DNA of 64,000 bases from a virus: the IMG/VR virus record IMGVR_UViG_3300023296_001674, one strand, 5' to 3'. Both the position numbers and the translations under genes were made by a program. Numbering within the stretch: the stretch's first letter is position 1; every line of letters begins with the position of its first letter. Of this stretch, positions 19,489 to 26,551 are shown one piece after another. Below the pieces are notes generated by a model. The model saw only the letters and a program-made list of their open reading frames with translations. It did not search any database and was not told the origin of the DNA.

Positions 19489-20679
19489 ATGAGTAAACTA
19501 TTTGAATCAAACTGGGATACCACAAGATCAGCACTTTGTGAAGGTTTGGAAGGAACTAAAAAACAAGTTATGGAAACAGTTCTTAACAACACCCGCGCAG
19601 AGTTAAAGCTTATGGAATCCGCAACAGCAGGTGCAACATCCGCTGGTAACGTAGCAACCTTGAACAAGGTTATCCTACCAGTTATCCGCCGTGTTATGCC
19701 AACTGTTATCGCTAACGAAATCATCGGCGTACAGCCAATGACCGGACCTGTTGGTCAAATTCACACATTGCGTGTGCGTTATGCTGACACATTTGGTACT
19801 GGAGCAGGTGCGCCTGTTACTGCTGGTACTGAAGCATTAGGCCCATTCGAAATTGCACGTTTCTATGCTGGTAACGGCGACGGAAACAACCCACGTGCTG
19901 CTTCTACAGCAGTATTGGAAGGTGTACCTGGTAATCGCTTGAACATCCAAGTATTGAAAGAAACCGTTGAGTCAAAGACACGTAGATTGTCTGCTCGTTG
20001 GACTTTCGAAGCTGCACAAGATGCACAAGCACAGCAAGGTATTGATATCGAAGCTGAAATTATGGCTGCGTTGGCTCAAGAAATCACTGCTGAAATCGAT
20101 CAGGAAATCTTGGTTTCCCTTCGTGCTCTTCCGGGTGCTCCAACAGCCATCTTCGATCAAGGTAACGTAAGTGGTACAGCTACTTATGTTGGTGATGAGC
20201 ATGCTGCACTTGCAGTTTTGATCAACCGCCAAAGTAACTTGATTGCTTCCAGAACACGTCGTGGTGCTGGTAACTGGTGTGTTATATCACCAACTGCTTT
20301 AACTGTTCTTCAAAGTGCTACAACGTCCGCGTTCGCACGTACTACTGAAGGTACATTCGAAGCTCCAACAAACACAAAGTTCGTTGGAACATTGAACAAC
20401 TCCATGAGAGTTTATGTTGATCAATATGCTGGTGATTCTACTCCAGTTCTTATTGGTTATAAAGGTCAAGGCGAAATTGATGCGGCTGCTTATTACTGCC
20501 CATACGTTCCGTTGACATCTTCAGGCGTTATAATTGATCCACAGACTTTCGAGCCTGTAGTTTCTTTCATGACGAGGTACGGATACATCGAGTTGACGAA
20601 CACGGCCAGTTCCCTTGGAAATGCTGCTGATTATGTTGGTTTGGTTGGTATCAATACAGCGAACTTGAAGTTCCTTTAA
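19489..20679 (+). CDS. Major capsid protein, T4 gp23-like
   Basis: IIGVQPMTGPVGQI, RRLSARWTFEAAQD, EITAEIDQEI, YCPYVPL, FMTRYG. Confidence 0.97.
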   Translation: MSKLFESNWDTTRSALCEGLEGTKKQVMETVLNNTRAELKLMESATAGATSAGNVATLNKVILPVIRRVMPTVIANEIIGVQPMTGPVGQIHTLRVRYADTFGTGAGAPVTAGTEALGPFEIARFYAGNGDGNNPRAASTAVLEGVPGNRLNIQVLKETVESKTRRLSARWTFEAAQDAQAQQGIDIEAEIMAALAQEITAEIDQEILVSLRALPGAPTAIFDQGNVSGTATYVGDEHAALAVLINRQSNLIASRTRRGAGNWCVISPTALTVLQSATTSAFARTTEGTFEAPTNTKFVGTLNNSMRVYVDQYAGDSTPVLIGYKGQGEIDAAAYYCPYVPLTSSGVIIDPQTFEPVVSFMTRYGYIELTNTASSLGNAADYVGLVGINTANLKFL

Positions 20680-20716
20680 GCCTTGTGCTTATAGGCTTTT
20701 CATTAAGCAAAAATTC

Positions 20717-20745
20717 AGGCAGGAACTTCGGTTCCTGCCTTTTTT
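20717..20745 (+). terminator. Rho-independent terminator after MCP
   Basis: aggcaggaac-TTCG-gttcctgcct-ttttt. Confidence 0.92.
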
Positions 20746-20783
20746 GTTGACTTTATTCATGTGTATATGATATAAATACTACT

Positions 20784-21572
20784 ATGAATAATAAATTTTA
20801 TGTATACATATATTATGACCCAAGAAATAATCAACCGTTTTATGTTGGTAAAGGAACTGGTGCGCGTTTATATGACCATCTAAAAGAATCTATAGAACGA
20901 ACAGCAAATAAACGCAAGCATTATAAAATACAATCTATCCGACGTGATGGGTTAGAGCCAGTAGTTGAAAAATATAAAGATAATCTTACTGAAAATGAAG
21001 CATATGATTTAGAAGATGAACTCATAATAAAATGGGGTAGAAAGGATTTTGATAAAAACGGCATTTTGTTTAATATAGCAGAAGCAGGCATTAGAGTTCC
21101 GGTGTATCGCGGCAAGGATCATTATAACTGGGGTAAAACTGGTGCCATGCTAGGAAAAAAATTAACACCGGAACAAAAAGAGCGCCAACGAATAGCACAA
21201 ACAGGCAGAACGCGAGAACCATTTAGTGATGAATGGTTAAAAAATATGGGTAAGAAAAAGAAAGGTGATAAAAATCCAATGTATGGTAAAAAACATTCAC
21301 TTGAAACTTTGGAAAAGATACGCATCAAAGCACAAGATAGAATTCATAGTCCAGAATCAAATGAAAAACGTTCTGAAACATTGAAAAAAACCGCCGCGAA
21401 AAAATACCAACGTATCATTCCTGAAATACTTACTATCCAGCAGGATGGTATAATCACATATCGAGGTATTGCACGCGAACTTAATAATCGTGGATTTAAG
21501 ACTGATCGTGGTTCTATATTCCGTGATGATATAGTGAAACGTATTTTGACTACAATGAACACCACAACATAA
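20784..21572 (+). CDS. GIY-YIG homing endonuclease with NUMOD3 and C-terminal recombinase-type HTH
   Basis: FYVYIYYDPRNNQPFYVGKG; KGDKNPMYGKKHS; YRGIARELNNRGFKTDRG. Confidence 0.85.
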   Translation: MNNKFYVYIYYDPRNNQPFYVGKGTGARLYDHLKESIERTANKRKHYKIQSIRRDGLEPVVEKYKDNLTENEAYDLEDELIIKWGRKDFDKNGILFNIAEAGIRVPVYRGKDHYNWGKTGAMLGKKLTPEQKERQRIAQTGRTREPFSDEWLKNMGKKKKGDKNPMYGKKHSLETLEKIRIKAQDRIHSPESNEKRSETLKKTAAKKYQRIIPEILTIQQDGIITYRGIARELNNRGFKTDRGSIFRDDIVKRILTTMNTTT

Positions 21573-21631
21573 TATAGACTCCCCGCCCACCCCTATGCTA
21601 TGCTACTGTTAAACATTATAGAGGCATCATT

Positions 21632-21709
21632 ATGAACACACTAGCAACATGGCACTGGCACATAGAAATTAGTTCTAAGTGTACACATAATACGGCACAA
21701 GAATGGTGA
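21632..21709 (+). pseudogene. 5' remnant of a radical SAM gene
   Basis: MNTLATWHWHIEISSKCTHNTAQEW*: IEISSKC fits the lead-in to a CxxxCxxC motif, broken after the first Cys; GAGG SD upstream. Confidence 0.45.
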
Positions 21710-21720
21710 TTTAAGTGTAT

Positions 21721-21972
21721 ATGCAAGTAAATTCAACTGAATATATGTTCACTTGTCATGAAGTAGCGTTGCCTACTAAATTGATTCAAGCCTATCATGT
21801 CGTTTCAGGTATGCCACATACTGCATATGTATTTGACGATCAGGCACCGATTCAATGGTTGATTGATAATGATATAGATTATAAGAATGAAAAAACAGAT
21901 CAATACACACGAAGGATATTAGTAATAAAATCGATAGAGAATTCAATGGCATTCAAGTTGAGGTGGATATGA
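21721..21972 (+). CDS. Array paralog 1 (WxxxN...MAFKLRW family)
   Basis: QWLIDND...ENSMAFKLRWI*; ATGA overlap with next gene. Confidence 0.75.
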   Translation: MQVNSTEYMFTCHEVALPTKLIQAYHVVSGMPHTAYVFDDQAPIQWLIDNDIDYKNEKTDQYTRRILVIKSIENSMAFKLRWI

Positions 21973-22214
21973 TATTAAAACAATTGCCACCAAATGATAG
22001 GCAAATATATTTCCATATGTTTGATGTAACATTAGAAAGTGGTGAATATAAAAGTCATATTACTAAATGGTTGAAGGAAAATATAGGTAGATATAAATTT
22101 ATGGAACGAGATAGAAAATGGATTGTTAATAATTATCGTGGTAAACATAATAGATTTTTCTATGGGTTTAGGTATAGCGAAGATGCGATGGCTTTTAAAT
22201 TGATGTGGATATGA
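21969..22214 (+). CDS. Array paralog 2
   Basis: KWLKENI...FRYSEDAMAFKLMWI*; ATGA overlaps at both ends. Confidence 0.75.
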   Translation: MILKQLPPNDRQIYFHMFDVTLESGEYKSHITKWLKENIGRYKFMERDRKWIVNNYRGKHNRFFYGFRYSEDAMAFKLMWI

Positions 22215-22504
22215 TTATATTTGATCAACGGTATCATGTTAGTGAGTTTTTATCTGTATATCAAAAATGGATAAAGGTGGGAGTGAGTAGAAGTCTTGCT
22301 ACAGGTATGTCAGATGAACATGATGTAACGTATTGTCGTGATGCTGATATTATATATGAAAAACTTGCAGAAAATATGATTGAAATATCTTTATGGATAT
22401 ATGAAAATATAAACTCTGAATATATTGCATTTAGTATGTATGAACATGCATTTTTTATAAAAAACGAATGTGATGCGATGGCGTTTAAATTGAGGTGGAT
22501 GTAA
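22211..22504 (+). CDS. Array paralog 3
   Basis: LWIYENI...ECDAMAFKLRWM*. Confidence 0.75.
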   Translation: MIIFDQRYHVSEFLSVYQKWIKVGVSRSLATGMSDEHDVTYCRDADIIYEKLAENMIEISLWIYENINSEYIAFSMYEHAFFIKNECDAMAFKLRWM

Positions 22505-22507
22505 ATT

Positions 22508-22729
22508 ATGAAATGTGAAAAGTGTTCAAAGGAAATAATAAACAAATGGAAAGTATACCCCGAAGAACCCGGTTATTCTATCATATCAAAGGATGGAAAA
22601 GATGGTCATCCTATGGGATTCAAACGATTTAAAACAAAATGGGCTTATTTAATTTGCTTCAGTGAAAATCATTTCTCTGAAAAATGGCAAAGAAAGATTC
22701 ATAAATGGTGGAGTTCGCAAAATGGTTAG
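22508..22729 (+). CDS. Small hypothetical protein within the array (non-family, CxxC)
   Basis: MKCEKC...; uses GAGGTGG of the preceding junction as SD. Confidence 0.6.
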   Translation: MKCEKCSKEIINKWKVYPEEPGYSIISKDGKDGHPMGFKRFKTKWAYLICFSENHFSEKWQRKIHKWWSSQNG

Positions 22730-23132
22730 ATGTATAAATTTTCCAAGTAGATACGATGAAGAATTGTATAATTTAACCAAACATGTTAATGATTATCAAG
22801 AAGAGGTAGATAAAATAGCACGACGAAGAGAAATGGCGAAACATTCTTCATATAACAGCGAAGAATTTGTAAAAAATCTAACAGAAGATGAACCGACAGC
22901 GATAACGTCATTAAGAAAAGCAAATATTAATCTTACATATTTTAATACATTCACTCGCGATGATTGGAAATTTAATTCTAAAATAATAAAAGGCAATAAT
23001 ACATTAATAAGAAAATGGTGTTTATCAGAATTAAAATATAAACCATATTCAAAATTGGCAGTTGGAGGAACATTGTATATATTTCGTGATGATACGGATG
23101 CAATGGCGGCATATTTAAGGTGGTCTACGTGA
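22722..23132 (+). CDS. Array paralog 4
   Basis: Start 22722 (GGTGGAG upstream); KWCLSEL...FRDDTDAMAAYLRWST*. Confidence 0.7.
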   Translation: MVRCINFPSRYDEELYNLTKHVNDYQEEVDKIARRREMAKHSSYNSEEFVKNLTEDEPTAITSLRKANINLTYFNTFTRDDWKFNSKIIKGNNTLIRKWCLSELKYKPYSKLAVGGTLYIFRDDTDAMAAYLRWST

Positions 23133-23404
23133 TTTATATTGACCTACCGTGGAATCTATATAATCATAATGAAACGATGCAAAGATTTTTTGATAATATA
23201 GATGATGATAACTTGTTTGATTTAAAATATTTAAAACCCAATGAAGATATGGTATCATGGTTGAACGAAAATGATATATCATATGAATTTGTTACCTCAA
23301 AACCAGTTAAAACAATGTGCGGCAAAGATGGTTTGTTGCATGATTATTTTATAAAACTCGACATTAAAGAGGACGCTATGGGGTTTATATTACGATGGAT
23401 ATAA
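23129..23404 (+). CDS. Array paralog 5
   Basis: GTGA overlap; SWLNEND...KEDAMGFILRWI*. Confidence 0.7.
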   Translation: MIYIDLPWNLYNHNETMQRFFDNIDDDNLFDLKYLKPNEDMVSWLNENDISYEFVTSKPVKTMCGKDGLLHDYFIKLDIKEDAMGFILRWI

Positions 23405-23637
23405 TGACTTATGTATTTGAAAATGATGAACATTTTGTAGAAATCGAGCCAAGTCTTGCGTTATTACCAAATGGTGAAAAAATAGTTTACAGTGGACTTG
23501 TGATACATAATGATGTAATTAAGTGGTGTGACGATAATTTTAATAACTGGAAATATTCATGGGATTCATATGATGCACCTAAAATACAATTTGAATGCAA
23601 GGAGGACGCTATGGGGTTTATACTACGATGGGTATGA
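23404..23637 (+). CDS. Array paralog 6
   Basis: TAATG overlap; KWCDDNF...FECKEDAMGFILRWV*. Confidence 0.75.
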   Translation: MTYVFENDEHFVEIEPSLALLPNGEKIVYSGLVIHNDVIKWCDDNFNNWKYSWDSYDAPKIQFECKEDAMGFILRWV

Positions 23638-23819
23638 AAAAAACAAAACGATCTGATATCAGACTTGTTTGTTCTATGAGAATTGATGATGAAAAATTGG
23701 ATTGGTTCAAAGATAATGATATACATAAATATTATTTGTTTAATAATGTAAACAGTGGTGCACATATATCGTTTAAATATGCAGAGGACGCGATGGCGTT
23801 TAAGTTGATGTGGTTATGA
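23634..23819 (+). CDS. Array paralog 7
   Basis: ATGA overlap; DWFKDND...FKYAEDAMAFKLMWL*. Confidence 0.75.
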   Translation: MKKTKRSDIRLVCSMRIDDEKLDWFKDNDIHKYYLFNNVNSGAHISFKYAEDAMAFKLMWL

Positions 23820-24043
23820 TTCAACTTGACGAACATGACCATTTTAATATAGAATACGAAGATTATAAGAACAATATGTATTTTGTTATGTTAAATGATG
23901 AAATAGAAGTATGGATTCGTGAAAATCTAAATAGTGATTATGATTTAGATTGTGAAGATTATTATTATTATAAAGATTCATCAATATATATCACATTTGC
24001 CAACGATGAAGATTCTGTCGCATTTATATTGAGGTGGATATGA
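23816..24043 (+). CDS. Array paralog 8
   Basis: ATGA overlap; VWIRENL...FANDEDSVAFILRWI*. Confidence 0.75.
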   Translation: MIQLDEHDHFNIEYEDYKNNMYFVMLNDEIEVWIRENLNSDYDLDCEDYYYYKDSSIYITFANDEDSVAFILRWI

Positions 24044-24336
24044 AACTAGTAAAATGTAGAAAGTATAAAAAAGGATCAACCGTTCCGTTAGAATACTTCA
24101 AATATGAATTACGTTTCGATAAAGAAACGGTTAATTTAATATGCAATAAACATAAAAATCCGATAGATGGTCTTACTGATTGGTGTGATGAAAATTATGG
24201 CCCTATGGTACCAAAAGATGGCGTTAAAGGATGGAATTGGGCGATGTGGGCTACACCACATTATAAAAATGTAGAGGCTATAGTATTTTTGCATTTAGTT
24301 GAGGACGCGATGGCTTTTAAATTACGATGGACATAA
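24040..24336 (+). CDS. Array paralog 9
   Basis: ATGA overlap; DWCDENYG...VEDAMAFKLRWT*. Confidence 0.75.
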   Translation: MKLVKCRKYKKGSTVPLEYFKYELRFDKETVNLICNKHKNPIDGLTDWCDENYGPMVPKDGVKGWNWAMWATPHYKNVEAIVFLHLVEDAMAFKLRWT

Positions 24337-24505
24337 ATAAAAAACCAAAACTTACAACTTTGTATTCATTGAGTTTATTGAGTAGTATAGAAATAGTATA
24401 TCCAAAAATTGAAGTGTTTATGGATTATAAAGCTAACGTAATATTAATTATTGACAACGTAGATGATATAACGCTTGGGCATCATGGGATGGATAAAAAT
24501 TTGAA

Positions 24506-24706
24506 ATGAATTATATAACGCGACAATCATCGGGGTGGTTTGCAATAACTAGTTATTGGTATCGAACAGATATTTATACATTATCACAACAACAACGAAA
24601 ATGGATTGAATGCAATATTCGTGGTAGATGGACGGAAAACGCGTTTGGATGTGTAATGTTTGAACACGAAGATGATTACATATTATATATGTTTGCTGGA
24701 TCATGA
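24506..24706 (+). CDS. Divergent array paralog
   Basis: KWIECNIRGRW...MFEHEDDYILYM; degenerate form of the family motif. Confidence 0.55.
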   Translation: MNYITRQSSGWFAITSYWYRTDIYTLSQQQRKWIECNIRGRWTENAFGCVMFEHEDDYILYMFAGS

Positions 24707-25050
24707 AAAAACTTAAACATATATTATCATGGGATATTTCAGATGATATCAAATCTAAATACAATGAAGATGTAGATATTCCATATGAGCATGATAAATT
24801 TACAGTAGAGTTTTATTTATGTGAAGACCTCTGTGATGATGAATGGGAATCATATCGAGTTAAATTTGTAGAACTTGATGATTATTATGATTTACGAATA
24901 GCAGTATATGCTATGGATATAAGCCGTGAAATAGAAAAACGTGATGGTGGCACAATTGTAGAGTTTATATACCATGTGTTGATGGATTTAATAAATGAAG
25001 AGGATAAAGAGATAGCCATGCGGGACTTTTTAGATGAAATAAGTGATTAA
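24703..25050 (+). CDS. Acidic hypothetical protein
   Basis: 115-aa ORF with ATGA overlap. Confidence 0.6.
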   Translation: MKKLKHILSWDISDDIKSKYNEDVDIPYEHDKFTVEFYLCEDLCDDEWESYRVKFVELDDYYDLRIAVYAMDISREIEKRDGGTIVEFIYHVLMDLINEEDKEIAMRDFLDEISD

Positions 25051-25052
25051 AT

Positions 25053-25280
25053 ATGTCAAAATATCTACGAAAACAAAAAAGAAAAACTAAATTATGTTTA
25101 AAGAAAACATATACATTAGAACGAACGTTATCTAAAGAAGCGCGAGAAGAAATAGAAGAATGGTGTGAAGAAAATCTCACAGGGAGTTGTATGTGGTTAA
25201 GAACTGGATGGAATGATTCAAATACTATGGGATTTCAAGATTTATATGATAAAATGGCATTTATTTTGCGTTGGGCGTGA
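25053..25280 (+). CDS. Array paralog 10
   Basis: EWCEENL...FQDLYDKMAFILRWA*. Confidence 0.7.
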   Translation: MSKYLRKQKRKTKLCLKKTYTLERTLSKEAREEIEEWCEENLTGSCMWLRTGWNDSNTMGFQDLYDKMAFILRWA

Positions 25281-25344
25281 AATATATTGACCTACCAGTA
25301 TGAAATAATATATTATAATACAATATTAATATGGAGTATATTAA

Positions 25345-25869
25345 ATGAGTGACAATACTTTTGCTGACATGACGTTGTCGGAGCAAATACAGGTAGTTAA
25401 TGATAGATTTATGGGTAATCACCCTGATAGAATAACACAACCAAGTGAATTATTTAATGTTTTGGGTGAAACTGTTTATATAGTTCTTTCGCCATTCGGT
25501 AAAGACCAAGATATAGGCAATGGTTATATTTTTGATATGAGTATTGATGAAATACGATCAAAAGATGGTGAAATATTGAATAATTATGACGTATTATCAA
25601 TAGATAGTTTAGAAAATCCCGTATGTATATGCAATGATGATGAATTTAAAGCATTATGTTTGCGAGATTTGAACATTATACCAAATATATATAATAATCA
25701 TGCTGCATTTACAACAAGAGATGGCGCTGAAGCATACGCCATGTTTAGAAAAATTCAATGGTTAGAAGAACAATCGTTAATAGATATGTCAAATGAATTT
25801 GATTTTTGGATGACGGACGAACAATATAATTCAGATAAGAAAATAATCGATAAAAATAAGGAAAAATAA
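25345..25869 (+). CDS. Hypothetical protein
   Basis: 174-aa ORF, GGAG SD, TTGACC-18-TATTAT promoter at 25287. Confidence 0.7.
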   Translation: MSDNTFADMTLSEQIQVVNDRFMGNHPDRITQPSELFNVLGETVYIVLSPFGKDQDIGNGYIFDMSIDEIRSKDGEILNNYDVLSIDSLENPVCICNDDEFKALCLRDLNIIPNIYNNHAAFTTRDGAEAYAMFRKIQWLEEQSLIDMSNEFDFWMTDEQYNSDKKIIDKNKEK

Positions 25870-25870
25870 T

Positions 25871-26551
25871 ATGTTAGTAGGTGTTGTTGGTTTTATTGGC
25901 TCCGGTAAGGGTGCTATAGGCGATTTATTAGTTAAAAATAATGGTTTCACGACAGATAGTTTTGCAAAATCAGTTAAAGATGTTGCTTCGGTGATATTTG
26001 GATGGGATCGCGAGATGCTTGAAGGAAAAACAGATGAATCAAGGCATTTTAGAGAACAGCCAGATAGATATTGGTCTAAGAAACTTGATATTAAGAATTT
26101 TACACCACGACAAGCACTGCAAATGGTTGGAACTGAAGCAGGGCGTAACATATTTGGTGAAGTAATATGGACTGCTGGTGTTGAAAGACGTTGGTTGGAC
26201 GCAAAAAAACCTAATACTGTTATCACTGATTGTAGATTTCCTAATGAAATAGATATGATACGCAAATTGGGTGGGCGCGTACTGCGCATTACACGCGGGG
26301 CAGACCCTGAATGGTATCAACAGATGCTATTTTTTAATAAAGGCATGTGTGATGAAGAAGACTTGCGCATGATACGCCAACGACGTGCTACAAAATCTAT
26401 ACCACATGAAAGCGAAACCGCATGGATTGGGTGTAATTTTGATGAAAATATATCAAATGATGGCACACTTAAAGATTTAGAAAAAACAATGGTTGAAATT
26501 TCTGATAAATTGCTTGAAGCTTCTGAAATCCAACTTGGATTAGATTTGTGA
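25871..26551 (+). CDS. Deoxynucleoside monophosphate kinase, T4 gp1-like
   Basis: GVVGFIGSGKG, FAKSVKD, TPRQALQMVGTE, VITDCRFPNE, HESE. Confidence 0.92.
   Translation: MLVGVVGFIGSGKGAIGDLLVKNNGFTTDSFAKSVKDVASVIFGWDREMLEGKTDESRHFREQPDRYWSKKLDIKNFTPRQALQMVGTEAGRNIFGEVIWTAGVERRWLDAKKPNTVITDCRFPNEIDMIRKLGGRVLRITRGADPEWYQQMLFFNKGMCDEEDLRMIRQRRATKSIPHESETAWIGCNFDENISNDGTLKDLEKTMVEISDKLLEASEIQLGLDL

Follow-up and report, generated by a model that had tools for sequence, protein, structure and literature searches.

INTRODUCTION

The T-even phages carry 'internal-protein' (IP) loci, in which variable small proteins share an N-terminal capsid-targeting sequence that is cleaved off by the prohead protease. 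Large DNA viruses of eukaryotes possess 'genomic accordions', in which accessory genes are duplicated in tandem, diverge and are lost. In the 'PeSL' (promoter-early stem-loop) cassettes of T4-type phages, short repeats flank small, non-essential genes in the hyperplastic regions of the genome (Arbiol et al. 2010, PMC2839356; Comeau et al. 2014, PMC4122927). The esaG and tipC immunity genes of bacteria occur in strings of tandem paralogs that recombine between conserved blocks (Garrett et al. 2022, PMC9484751). Here we describe an array of small genes, joined end to end and mostly closing with the same peptide motif, at positions 21721–25280 of a 64,000-nucleotide (nt) stretch of viral DNA, 'the window', which lies within the 194-kb IMG/VR record IMGVR_UViG_3300023296_001674. 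The array is probably a tandem multigene family, subject to birth-and-death evolution, within a hyperplastic region of the genome of a giant phage with a T4-type core. It looks like an ordinary gene family of high turnover, and not like a new integron-like machine, as the initial annotation had proposed.

In the explanation we favor, each member would consist of one small α/β domain in which variable N-terminal strands form the body, accompanied by two conserved helices, one bearing W-x-x-E-N and the other the C-terminal EDAMAFKLRW. The last codons of each gene would double as the translation-initiation region of the next. The array would grow by tandem duplication, as a recent trio in locus L012 shows; the bodies would diverge fast under selection that is purifying but relaxed; and whole genes would be inserted, deleted or replaced through any short homology, be it the common gene ending or a microhomology of 6–9 nt. 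Rearrangements would survive only if they left the coupling of stop to start intact. We infer that translation of the array is coupled along a single polycistronic message, and that the products are accessory proteins directed at the host or at other proteins of the phage. Dedicated recombination machinery would have no part in this. In what follows, the loci compared are labeled L001, L003, L004, L006, L012–L016 and L021, and individual proteins P0022, P0086 and so on.

THE ARRAY AND ITS COMMON GENE ENDING

The array comprises 14 small genes, all on the plus strand and nearly all overlapping stop-on-start: ten canonical members of the family, one divergent member and three unrelated small open reading frames (ORFs). 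The initial annotation had drawn attention to ten ORFs with a shared C-terminal motif, and these are indeed present: allowing for variants, ten end in (E/D)DAM(A/G)F(K/I)L(R/M)W-x-stop, their stop codons finishing at 21972, 22214, 22504, 23132, 23404, 23637, 23819, 24043, 24336 and 25280. We refer to the DNA that encodes this motif as the 'tail' and to the rest of each gene as the 'body'. A profile of the family found no further match elsewhere in the 194-kb record. The bodies were said to be alike only in a WxxxN helix, and this proves correct: apart from a W-x-x-(E/D)-N helix they are saturated, and pairwise body alignments score no better than codon-shuffled controls.

PROTEIN MOTIF OR DNA SITE

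The matches between tails that were first reported are real. The tails at 23369–23404 and 23602–23637 are identical at 33 of 36 positions, the 22214 and 22504 junctions at 27 of 29, and the 24336 junction does contain three short strings that match other junctions. Two conclusions drawn from these matches do not stand, however. The junctions were held to be conserved at synonymous sites, but tails that encode the same residue use the same codon in 110 of 239 comparisons (0.46), where 0.48 is expected from the codon usage of the genome and 0.52 from that of the bodies. The junctions were also held to be mosaic, but column-wise shuffling of the codons yields a best pair of 33/36 or better in 4.8% of trials (P = 0.048), and the spread of identities is unexceptional (P = 0.11). 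The 24336 'mosaic' is therefore no more than independent columns would produce.

These results count against the main alternative, which is that the 3' tail is kept partly as a portable recombination site at which UvsX and gp46/47 swap whole genes, within one genome or between co-infecting phages. We consider this possible, but rather unlikely. Under the same alternative, and with the same reserve, each cassette would carry the start signals for the following gene, and the tail would be a coding analog of the PeSL elements of T4-type phages. Put most ambitiously, the ~36-bp tail encoding EDAMAFKLRW might be a selected, portable, 'self-chaining' junction that closes the fold, carries the ribosome-binding site and start context, and lets co-infecting giant phages exchange genes in register. 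We offer this only tentatively; if true, such a junction would be the coding counterpart of the PeSL across ~2,000 protein clusters.

In the window, the likeness of the junction DNA does not exceed what is predicted from the protein motif together with a codon preference peculiar to tails. Same-residue codon identity is 0.446 among the window tails and 0.438 between unrelated phage lineages, and the within-genome excess pooled over five arrays (0.479) is only marginal (P = 0.07). Orthologous tails (member 1 versus L003; L001 versus L015) vary freely at synonymous sites, save in TTG-AGG-TGG. Efficient recombination in T4 needs ~50 bp, but perfect matches between window tails reach only ~22 nt at most (hand count). 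The tail block shared by paralogs is longer and less exact, 44–52 nt at 62–81% identity in the window, rising to as much as 94% over 47 nt in L015/L016. Two facts speak for a recombination site: adjacent tails have a higher codon identity than non-adjacent ones (0.553 versus 0.450), and non-orthologous tails of L015 and L016 are alike over 39–57 nt at 82–94% identity.

We think, on the strength of a structural model discussed below, that the junction is conserved mainly because its 36 bp would encode the last helix of the protein fold. The cultured Sinorhizobium phage Phosso, which is richer in GC, has four members with tails of the type DAMLFKLAFT, and because Phosso retains the motif despite its different base composition, conservation appears to lie in the protein and not in the DNA. 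The junctions also lack the marks of a structured RNA element: in predicted folding, the ten are on a par with shuffled sequences (z between -0.96 and +0.81).

A PREDICTED TRANSLATION-INITIATION SIGNAL WITHIN THE TAILS

Codons ending in G or C were said to persist in the tails, and they do: G occupies the third position at a frequency of 0.32 in tails versus 0.08 in bodies (p = 5e-9). The excess of G recurs in the unrelated array L001 (0.26 versus 0.09) and, more weakly, in L006. Translation accounts for part of it. The genes are packed stop-on-start, as ATGA or TAATG, and the sequence TTG/TTA-AGG-TGG-ATA-TGA places GAGGTGG or AAGGTGG 5 nt ahead of the ATG that overlaps the stop codon. Tails with AGG have predicted energies of pairing between the Shine–Dalgarno (SD) and anti-SD sequences of -7.8 to -8.4 kcal/mol; the mean for other genes of the window is -4.75, and for random positions -2.1. 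The excess of G-ending codons is partly explained, then, because TTG-AGG-TGG forms a predicted SD for the next gene. Strong SDs of the TTG/TTA-AGG-TGG type occur in about half of the tail copies.

The rare codons GAG-GAC-GCN are found in the tails ending at 23404, 23637, 23819 and 24336, all of which are without the AGG codon of the SD. GAG-GAC occurs in none of the four AGG tails and in four of the six others (one-sided Fisher p ~0.07, by hand), an association not seen in L001. A separate idea, that GAGGAC-N5-ATG is the ribosome-binding site of an internal mini-ORF beginning at the Met of DAM, was considered and rejected. Only 4 of 10 window tails contain the arrangement, and in L001 the sole tail with GAG-GAC has no ATG there, while the tails with Met have no GAG-GAC.

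Four observations weigh against explaining the junction by fold and translation alone. First, where the Arg/Met codon is CGA or ATG, the tail has a weak SD or none, and therefore must rely on termination–reinitiation. Second, GAG-GAC-GCG lies 25–30 nt upstream of the next start in four window tails, too distant for a role as an SD. Third, some adjacent tails are almost identical beside bodies that cannot be aligned: the 33/36 pair in the window, and three consecutive, otherwise dissimilar members of L015 that share an almost identical 33-nt tail (codon identity 0.92). This suggests some homogenization that is specific to tails. And fourth, a ten-residue motif is kept across ~2,000 clusters amid a hypervariable remainder, which is more than the core of a fold usually needs, and no partner turned up for it. 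Few short motifs in hypervariable accessory genes of phages are conserved so strongly. That a single short stretch may serve protein structure and translational coupling together is a caution against reading oddities of codon use at gene ends as recombination sites.

GENE TURNOVER BETWEEN RELATED PHAGES

The initial annotation had envisaged cassettes being shuffled at the junctions. Part of this picture survives: turnover is high and proceeds by whole cassettes, and most breakpoints are at tails. A dedicated, junction-driven system does not emerge from the comparisons. The flanking DNA of L001 and L015 is 85–87% identical (dS, the synonymous divergence, ~0.4–0.6), and the two have only three orthologous members in common (dS 0.4–0.9). 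A 563-bp insertion in L001 (1657–2219) consists of exactly two members. Its right end falls at a tail stop codon, as the recombination-site alternative would have it, but the insertion is flanked by nothing more than a TAATGG microhomology, and one boundary has no tail. Further along, L001 3897–4582 is replaced by L015 6797–7922, three members in the one standing against three different ones and a 55-aa ORF in the other. On the left this three-for-four replacement begins immediately after a tail stop codon, and on the right it ends in a tail remnant; both favor exchange at the junction. A small membrane-protein ORF is present in L001 and absent from L015.

The remnant itself occupies L015 7880–7937, where the 55-aa ORF is followed by a frame-shifted tail (...ILRWI, stop) that retains GGTGGATATAA ahead of the next start. 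To judge by its sequence, it is a decaying cassette with the coupling signal preserved. L012, for its part, contains three tandem 85-aa members with DNA 72–78% identical, which are recent duplicates.

Relatives of the window itself tell a similar story. The small contig L003, the sole relative that is comparable to the window at a breakpoint, is homologous only as far as the stop codon of member 1. Member 8 has a homolog, P0068, in L006, where the neighbors that follow are unlike those in the window. Both cases agree with exchange at junctions. A 247,777-bp relative (ENA ERZ24794644) has P0022, the ortholog of member 1, in first place, and P0086, the likely ortholog of the last member, directly before the g100-like gene. 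The interior of its array differs, including a 301-aa gene and a TctA-like gene, and a search there for an ortholog of member 3 found none. Scans of IMG/VR and JGI anchored on the g100-like gene yielded only relatives at 38–42% identity. L021 (ENA ERZ27315625, 566 bp), from a population variant of this very phage, is identical to window positions 22009–22619 except for a 45-bp in-frame deletion in member 3, which appears from the window sequence to lie between ATATGAAAA direct repeats. Because this variant has lost the conserved W-x-x-E-N helix, member 3 is probably dispensable.

How far do such breakpoints discriminate? In overlapping genes, viable gene-sized indels are forced to break at junctions, and so the position of a breakpoint alone cannot prove that recombination is driven by the junction; selection by itself would put viable breakpoints there. 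Differential loss from a larger ancestral array would also give the same patterns. Recombination at tails very likely contributes to the duplication, loss and swapping of these genes, since the breakpoints, the occasional homogenized tails and the enzymes of the phage all point there. These do not establish that the junction is maintained for recombination, given the ~22-nt maximum identity, the indel at a 6-nt microhomology and the placing of breakpoints by selection.

SEARCHES FOR RECOMBINATION MACHINERY

The window encodes gp46-like, gp47-like, gp32 and UvsX-like recombination genes, much as had been reported, and for the idea of a junction-driven exchange these supply the enzymes, just as the shuffling mediated by PeSLs supplies a published precedent (PMC2839356, PMC4122927). 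A Pfam search for UvsY found no match, and the controls went unmatched as well. The integrase profile PF00589 has no match in the 194-kb record, although it matched in 14 of 14 control genomes, and the reverse transcriptase profile PF00078 likewise has none in the record; both absences had been claimed. A diversity-generating retroelement was also sought, but the array contains no long near-identical repeat pair and there is no reverse transcriptase. No terminator-like or other hairpins were found at the junctions. Promoter-like matches number 50 in 20600–26000, against 38.5 +/- 6.4 in shuffled sequence, and none recurs at the junctions. A TTGACC-N16-18-TATATT site is present only at the 21-bp repeat at 25276–25296, described below.

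THE PROTEIN FAMILY AND ITS PREDICTED FOLD

A profile built from 18 members, from two phages, retrieves 1,980 clusters (representatives at 50% identity) of metagenomic proteins at E <= 1e-3. Nearly all of the proteins are 50–170 aa long, with the domain at the C-terminus and the match extending to the final residue; fusions of two domains account for a few. The family also forms arrays in L001 (eight canonical members and a divergent one), L006, L012–L014 and L015/L016. In ~210-aa homologs (P0141, P0207–P0209) the domain is internal, and ...DAMAFKLRF is followed by a 40-aa extension. One of these, P0207 (216 aa), is encoded on the ~570-kb contig that includes the array sequence, outside the 194-kb record. 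This conserved group may be a stable form of the family, ancestral to it or its core. When longer fusion partners were sought, only ~200-aa domain-of-unknown-function proteins without Pfam domains turned up.

The family is otherwise elusive. A scan of 185,579 cellular genomes for the motif pattern found no copy. In Pfam, no window member scores above the gathering threshold, and 122 homologs give only single, scattered, weak matches. In PHROGs, the window members match nothing, and ten homologs give two weak, non-significant matches (E = 0.0055 and 0.045). Neither a Megablast search with the array, against 50,697 phage records, nor tblastn with member 6 gave a match. By the measure of these searches, the family is large, confined to phages, and new to Pfam and PHROGs.

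The AlphaFold2 model of member 6, made with 122 homologs, has a pLDDT of 87.5. Four short strands come first, then the W-x-x-E-N helix, two more strands, and finally the EDAMGFILRW helix (residues 66–76). Compared with two-layer α/β folds of the ferredoxin-like, ACT and RRM-like kinds, the model reaches a best Z of 5.7 (rmsd 2.8 Å over 66 residues), which is in the range common among unrelated small folds. Foldseek found nothing in the PDB at E <= 1e-3, and wider searches (Foldseek against PDB and BFVD, a wide VIA-align search, and the ESM Atlas) turned up nothing beyond generic small α/β folds and uncharacterized viral proteins. The nearest neighbors, by sequence and by structure, are uncharacterized proteins of uncultured phages. 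A homodimer prediction for member 6 scored 0.01, which counts neither way on binding.

This model has a bearing on a different view of the tail, that it serves all members as a common signal or as a peptide for binding a partner, and that the array encodes cargo or adaptor proteins which dock on one conserved target, either for capsid targeting, much as the N-terminal sequence of T4 internal proteins works, or on some phage or host protein. The extreme conservation of the motif beside hypervariable bodies would suit such a peptide, as would the natural two-domain fusions and the location of the array directly after a block of head genes (portal, prohead protease and major capsid protein). We nevertheless find it improbable. 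In the model, with high confidence, the tail is one of the helices that make up the fold; the ~210-aa homologs carry the motif at an internal position, as do the fusion proteins in their first halves; and in other phages the arrays are away from head genes. The prohead protease of T4 cleaves at the consensus L/I-x-E. A cleavage site for it ahead of the tail was considered and discarded: the translations of the members, checked by eye, have no consistent L/I-x-E there.

It might be asked whether the ORFs are genes at all, or only a decaying repeat or chance frames. They are very short and lack annotated homologs, the tail of the ORF at 24506 is degenerate, and L021 has lost part of member 3. 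We judge this to be very improbable all the same. Orthologous members have ratios of non-synonymous to synonymous divergence (dN/dS) of 0.12–0.46, those of flanking genes being mostly 0.08–0.15 with one 105-aa flanking gene at 0.28. The ~1,980 clusters, the confidently predicted fold and the consistency of stop/start coupling across the array speak against it too. Judged by these ratios, the members are under purifying selection, and are real proteins that evolve faster than core genes. The initial annotation had thought of anti-defense or host-takeover factors; an accessory role in host interaction or counter-defense is no more than a suggestion, drawn only from how small the proteins are, how fast their genes turn over and where these lie, in a hyperplastic region. 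The array proteins are candidates for screens of host-takeover or counter-defense activity.

THE GENES IN ORDER

Member 1 (21721–21972; 83 aa) has the tail ENSMAFKLRWI and an alternative GTG start at 21715. Its ortholog, P0022/L003, is 60–61% identical in protein sequence, with a dN/dS of 0.12. The start of member 2 (21969–22214; 81 aa; EDAMAFKLMWI) overlaps the stop of member 1 as ATGA, and member 3 (22211–22504; 97 aa) ends in CDAMAFKLRWM. Then comes the first of the unrelated ORFs (22508–22729), of 73 aa with an N-terminal CxxC. Its start is served by the SD in the tail of member 3, with a predicted duplex energy of -7.8 kcal/mol; this use of a tail SD by unrelated ORFs directly behind tails is what a portable junction would lead one to expect. 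Member 4 (22722–23132; 136 aa) has the variant tail DAMAAYLRWST.

Five members follow without interruption. Member 5 (23129–23404; 91 aa) has the tail KEDAMGFILRWI, which is the one identical at 33 of 36 nt to that of member 6, KEDAMGFILRWV. Member 6 (23404–23637; 77 aa; P0062) is the protein used for the structure model. Member 7 (23634–23819; tail AEDAMAFKLMWL) is 61 aa long if begun at the ATG at 23634, or 63 aa from 23628. Member 8 (23816–24043; 75 aa) ends in DEDSVAFILRWI, and member 9 (24040–24336; 98 aa) in VEDAMAFKLRWT.

The remainder of the array is more mixed. An unrelated 60-aa ORF (24327–24509) is followed by the divergent eleventh member (24506–24706; 66 aa), which aligns to the family profile only weakly (hhalign probability 44%, E = 2.4e-4). 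This ORF retains W-x-x-x-N and F-E-H-E-D-D, and its tail has degenerated to YILYMFAGS. Next are an unrelated, acidic ORF of 115 aa (24703–25050) and the last member (25053–25280; 75 aa; YDKMAFILRWA), the likely ortholog of which is P0086. The interleaving of unrelated ORFs at 22508 and 24703 had been recognized from the start. Both are confirmed as non-members, as is that at 24327; none of the three has a Pfam or PHROG match, and their hhalign probabilities are 0.6% (22508), 0.1% (24327) and 1.8% (24703).

A 21-bp direct repeat, CGTGA-ww-TATATTGACCTACC, occurs on the plus strand at two places. Copy 1 (23128–23148) spans the stop codon of member 4 and encodes the N-terminus of member 5. Copy 2 (25276–25296) lies across the stop codon of the last member and is non-coding; it provides the TTGACC -35 box of a sigma-70-like promoter (25287–25316) for the g100-like gene. 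The copies are 19/21 identical. Their 14-nt core, TATATTGACCTACC, is present exactly twice in 64 kb, where 0.48 matches at <=2 mismatches would be expected. The 2.15 kb between the copies, which hold nine genes, may have been inserted or duplicated here.

GENOMIC SURROUNDINGS

The core genes of the phage are of T4 type. They include those for the portal, the prohead protease and the major capsid protein (the last at 19489–20679), together with gp13/gp15-type neck genes and a tail sheath gene. Sinorhizobium phage Phosso has a major capsid protein 79.5% identical to this one; for the capsid proteins of Atu_ph07, PA5oct and GAP32 the identity is ~66%. Two kb of the array region are 100% identical to a 570,549-bp contig (L004; ENA ERZ27315719, contig k141_202852), and a second contig is 570,750 bp long. 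If these ~570-kb contigs are whole phage genomes, this is a T4-core phage among the largest known. The 194-kb record carries the IMG/VR label 'provirus' and a completeness of 51%.

The array is situated after the major capsid gene and before the g100-like gene and a deoxynucleoside monophosphate kinase gene. A strong terminator of the capsid gene (20717–20740) comes first, and between it and the array is a GIY-YIG/NUMOD3 homing-endonuclease gene (20784–21572, plus strand; Pfam PF22945 and PF07460), preceded by a late-promoter-like box, TATAAATA, at 20771. This gene is absent from L003 and from the 247,777-bp contig. In L003 (254–300) only ~50 nt separate the terminator from member 1, where the window has the endonuclease insertion (20746–21720). 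The gene is a mobile insertion; it could drive gene conversion nearby, and is a possible local source of double-strand breaks.

COMPARISON WITH KNOWN SYSTEMS

The array resembles an integron in being a one-directional row of small, unrelated-looking genes with a recurring short element and occasional foreign ORFs. The comparison that the initial annotation had made fails, however, in every defining part that was tested. No IntI recombinase was found in the 194-kb record and no attC-type hairpins at the junctions, the recurring element is coding, and most of the 'cassettes' are paralogs of one family.

With genomic accordions, the array has in common that accessory genes are duplicated in tandem and then diverge and are lost, the viral genomes being very large in both cases. 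It differs in that accordions belong to eukaryotic viruses, involve much larger genes, and have no stop/start translational coupling. As in IP loci, a single short peptide at one terminus is conserved, together with the DNA that encodes it, while the remainder varies, and the content differs among related phages. The IP signal, though, is N-terminal and cleaved, and the conserved element here is a C-terminal helix that is structural in the model.

Among published systems, two come nearest to the array: the shuffling mediated by PeSLs in T4-type phages, and the esaG and tipC strings. These strings are alike in consisting of non-identical tandem paralogs with short blocks of high similarity, some of them 3', and in varying in number and content among strains by recombination at these blocks. 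They differ in being bacterial toxin-immunity genes with clear recombinant paralogs; the genes here are those of a phage, and recombinants among the window tails are not significant.

The high turnover of cassettes makes these arrays a good natural system in which to study gene birth and death in giant phages, and the part that coding repeats may play in the role of PeSLs. PeSLs are non-coding, intergenic elements made up of a sigma-70-like promoter and a terminator stem-loop, whereas the junctions of the array have neither promoter nor stem-loop and are the coding 3' ends of genes, with an embedded ribosome-binding site and start. The likeness to PeSLs has three sides: small, non-essential genes of a hyperplastic region are flanked by short repeats, gene-sized indels and replacements occur between close relatives and have their ends at repeats, as in L001 versus L015, and the recombination invoked is the homologous recombination of the phage itself, with no dedicated recombinase.

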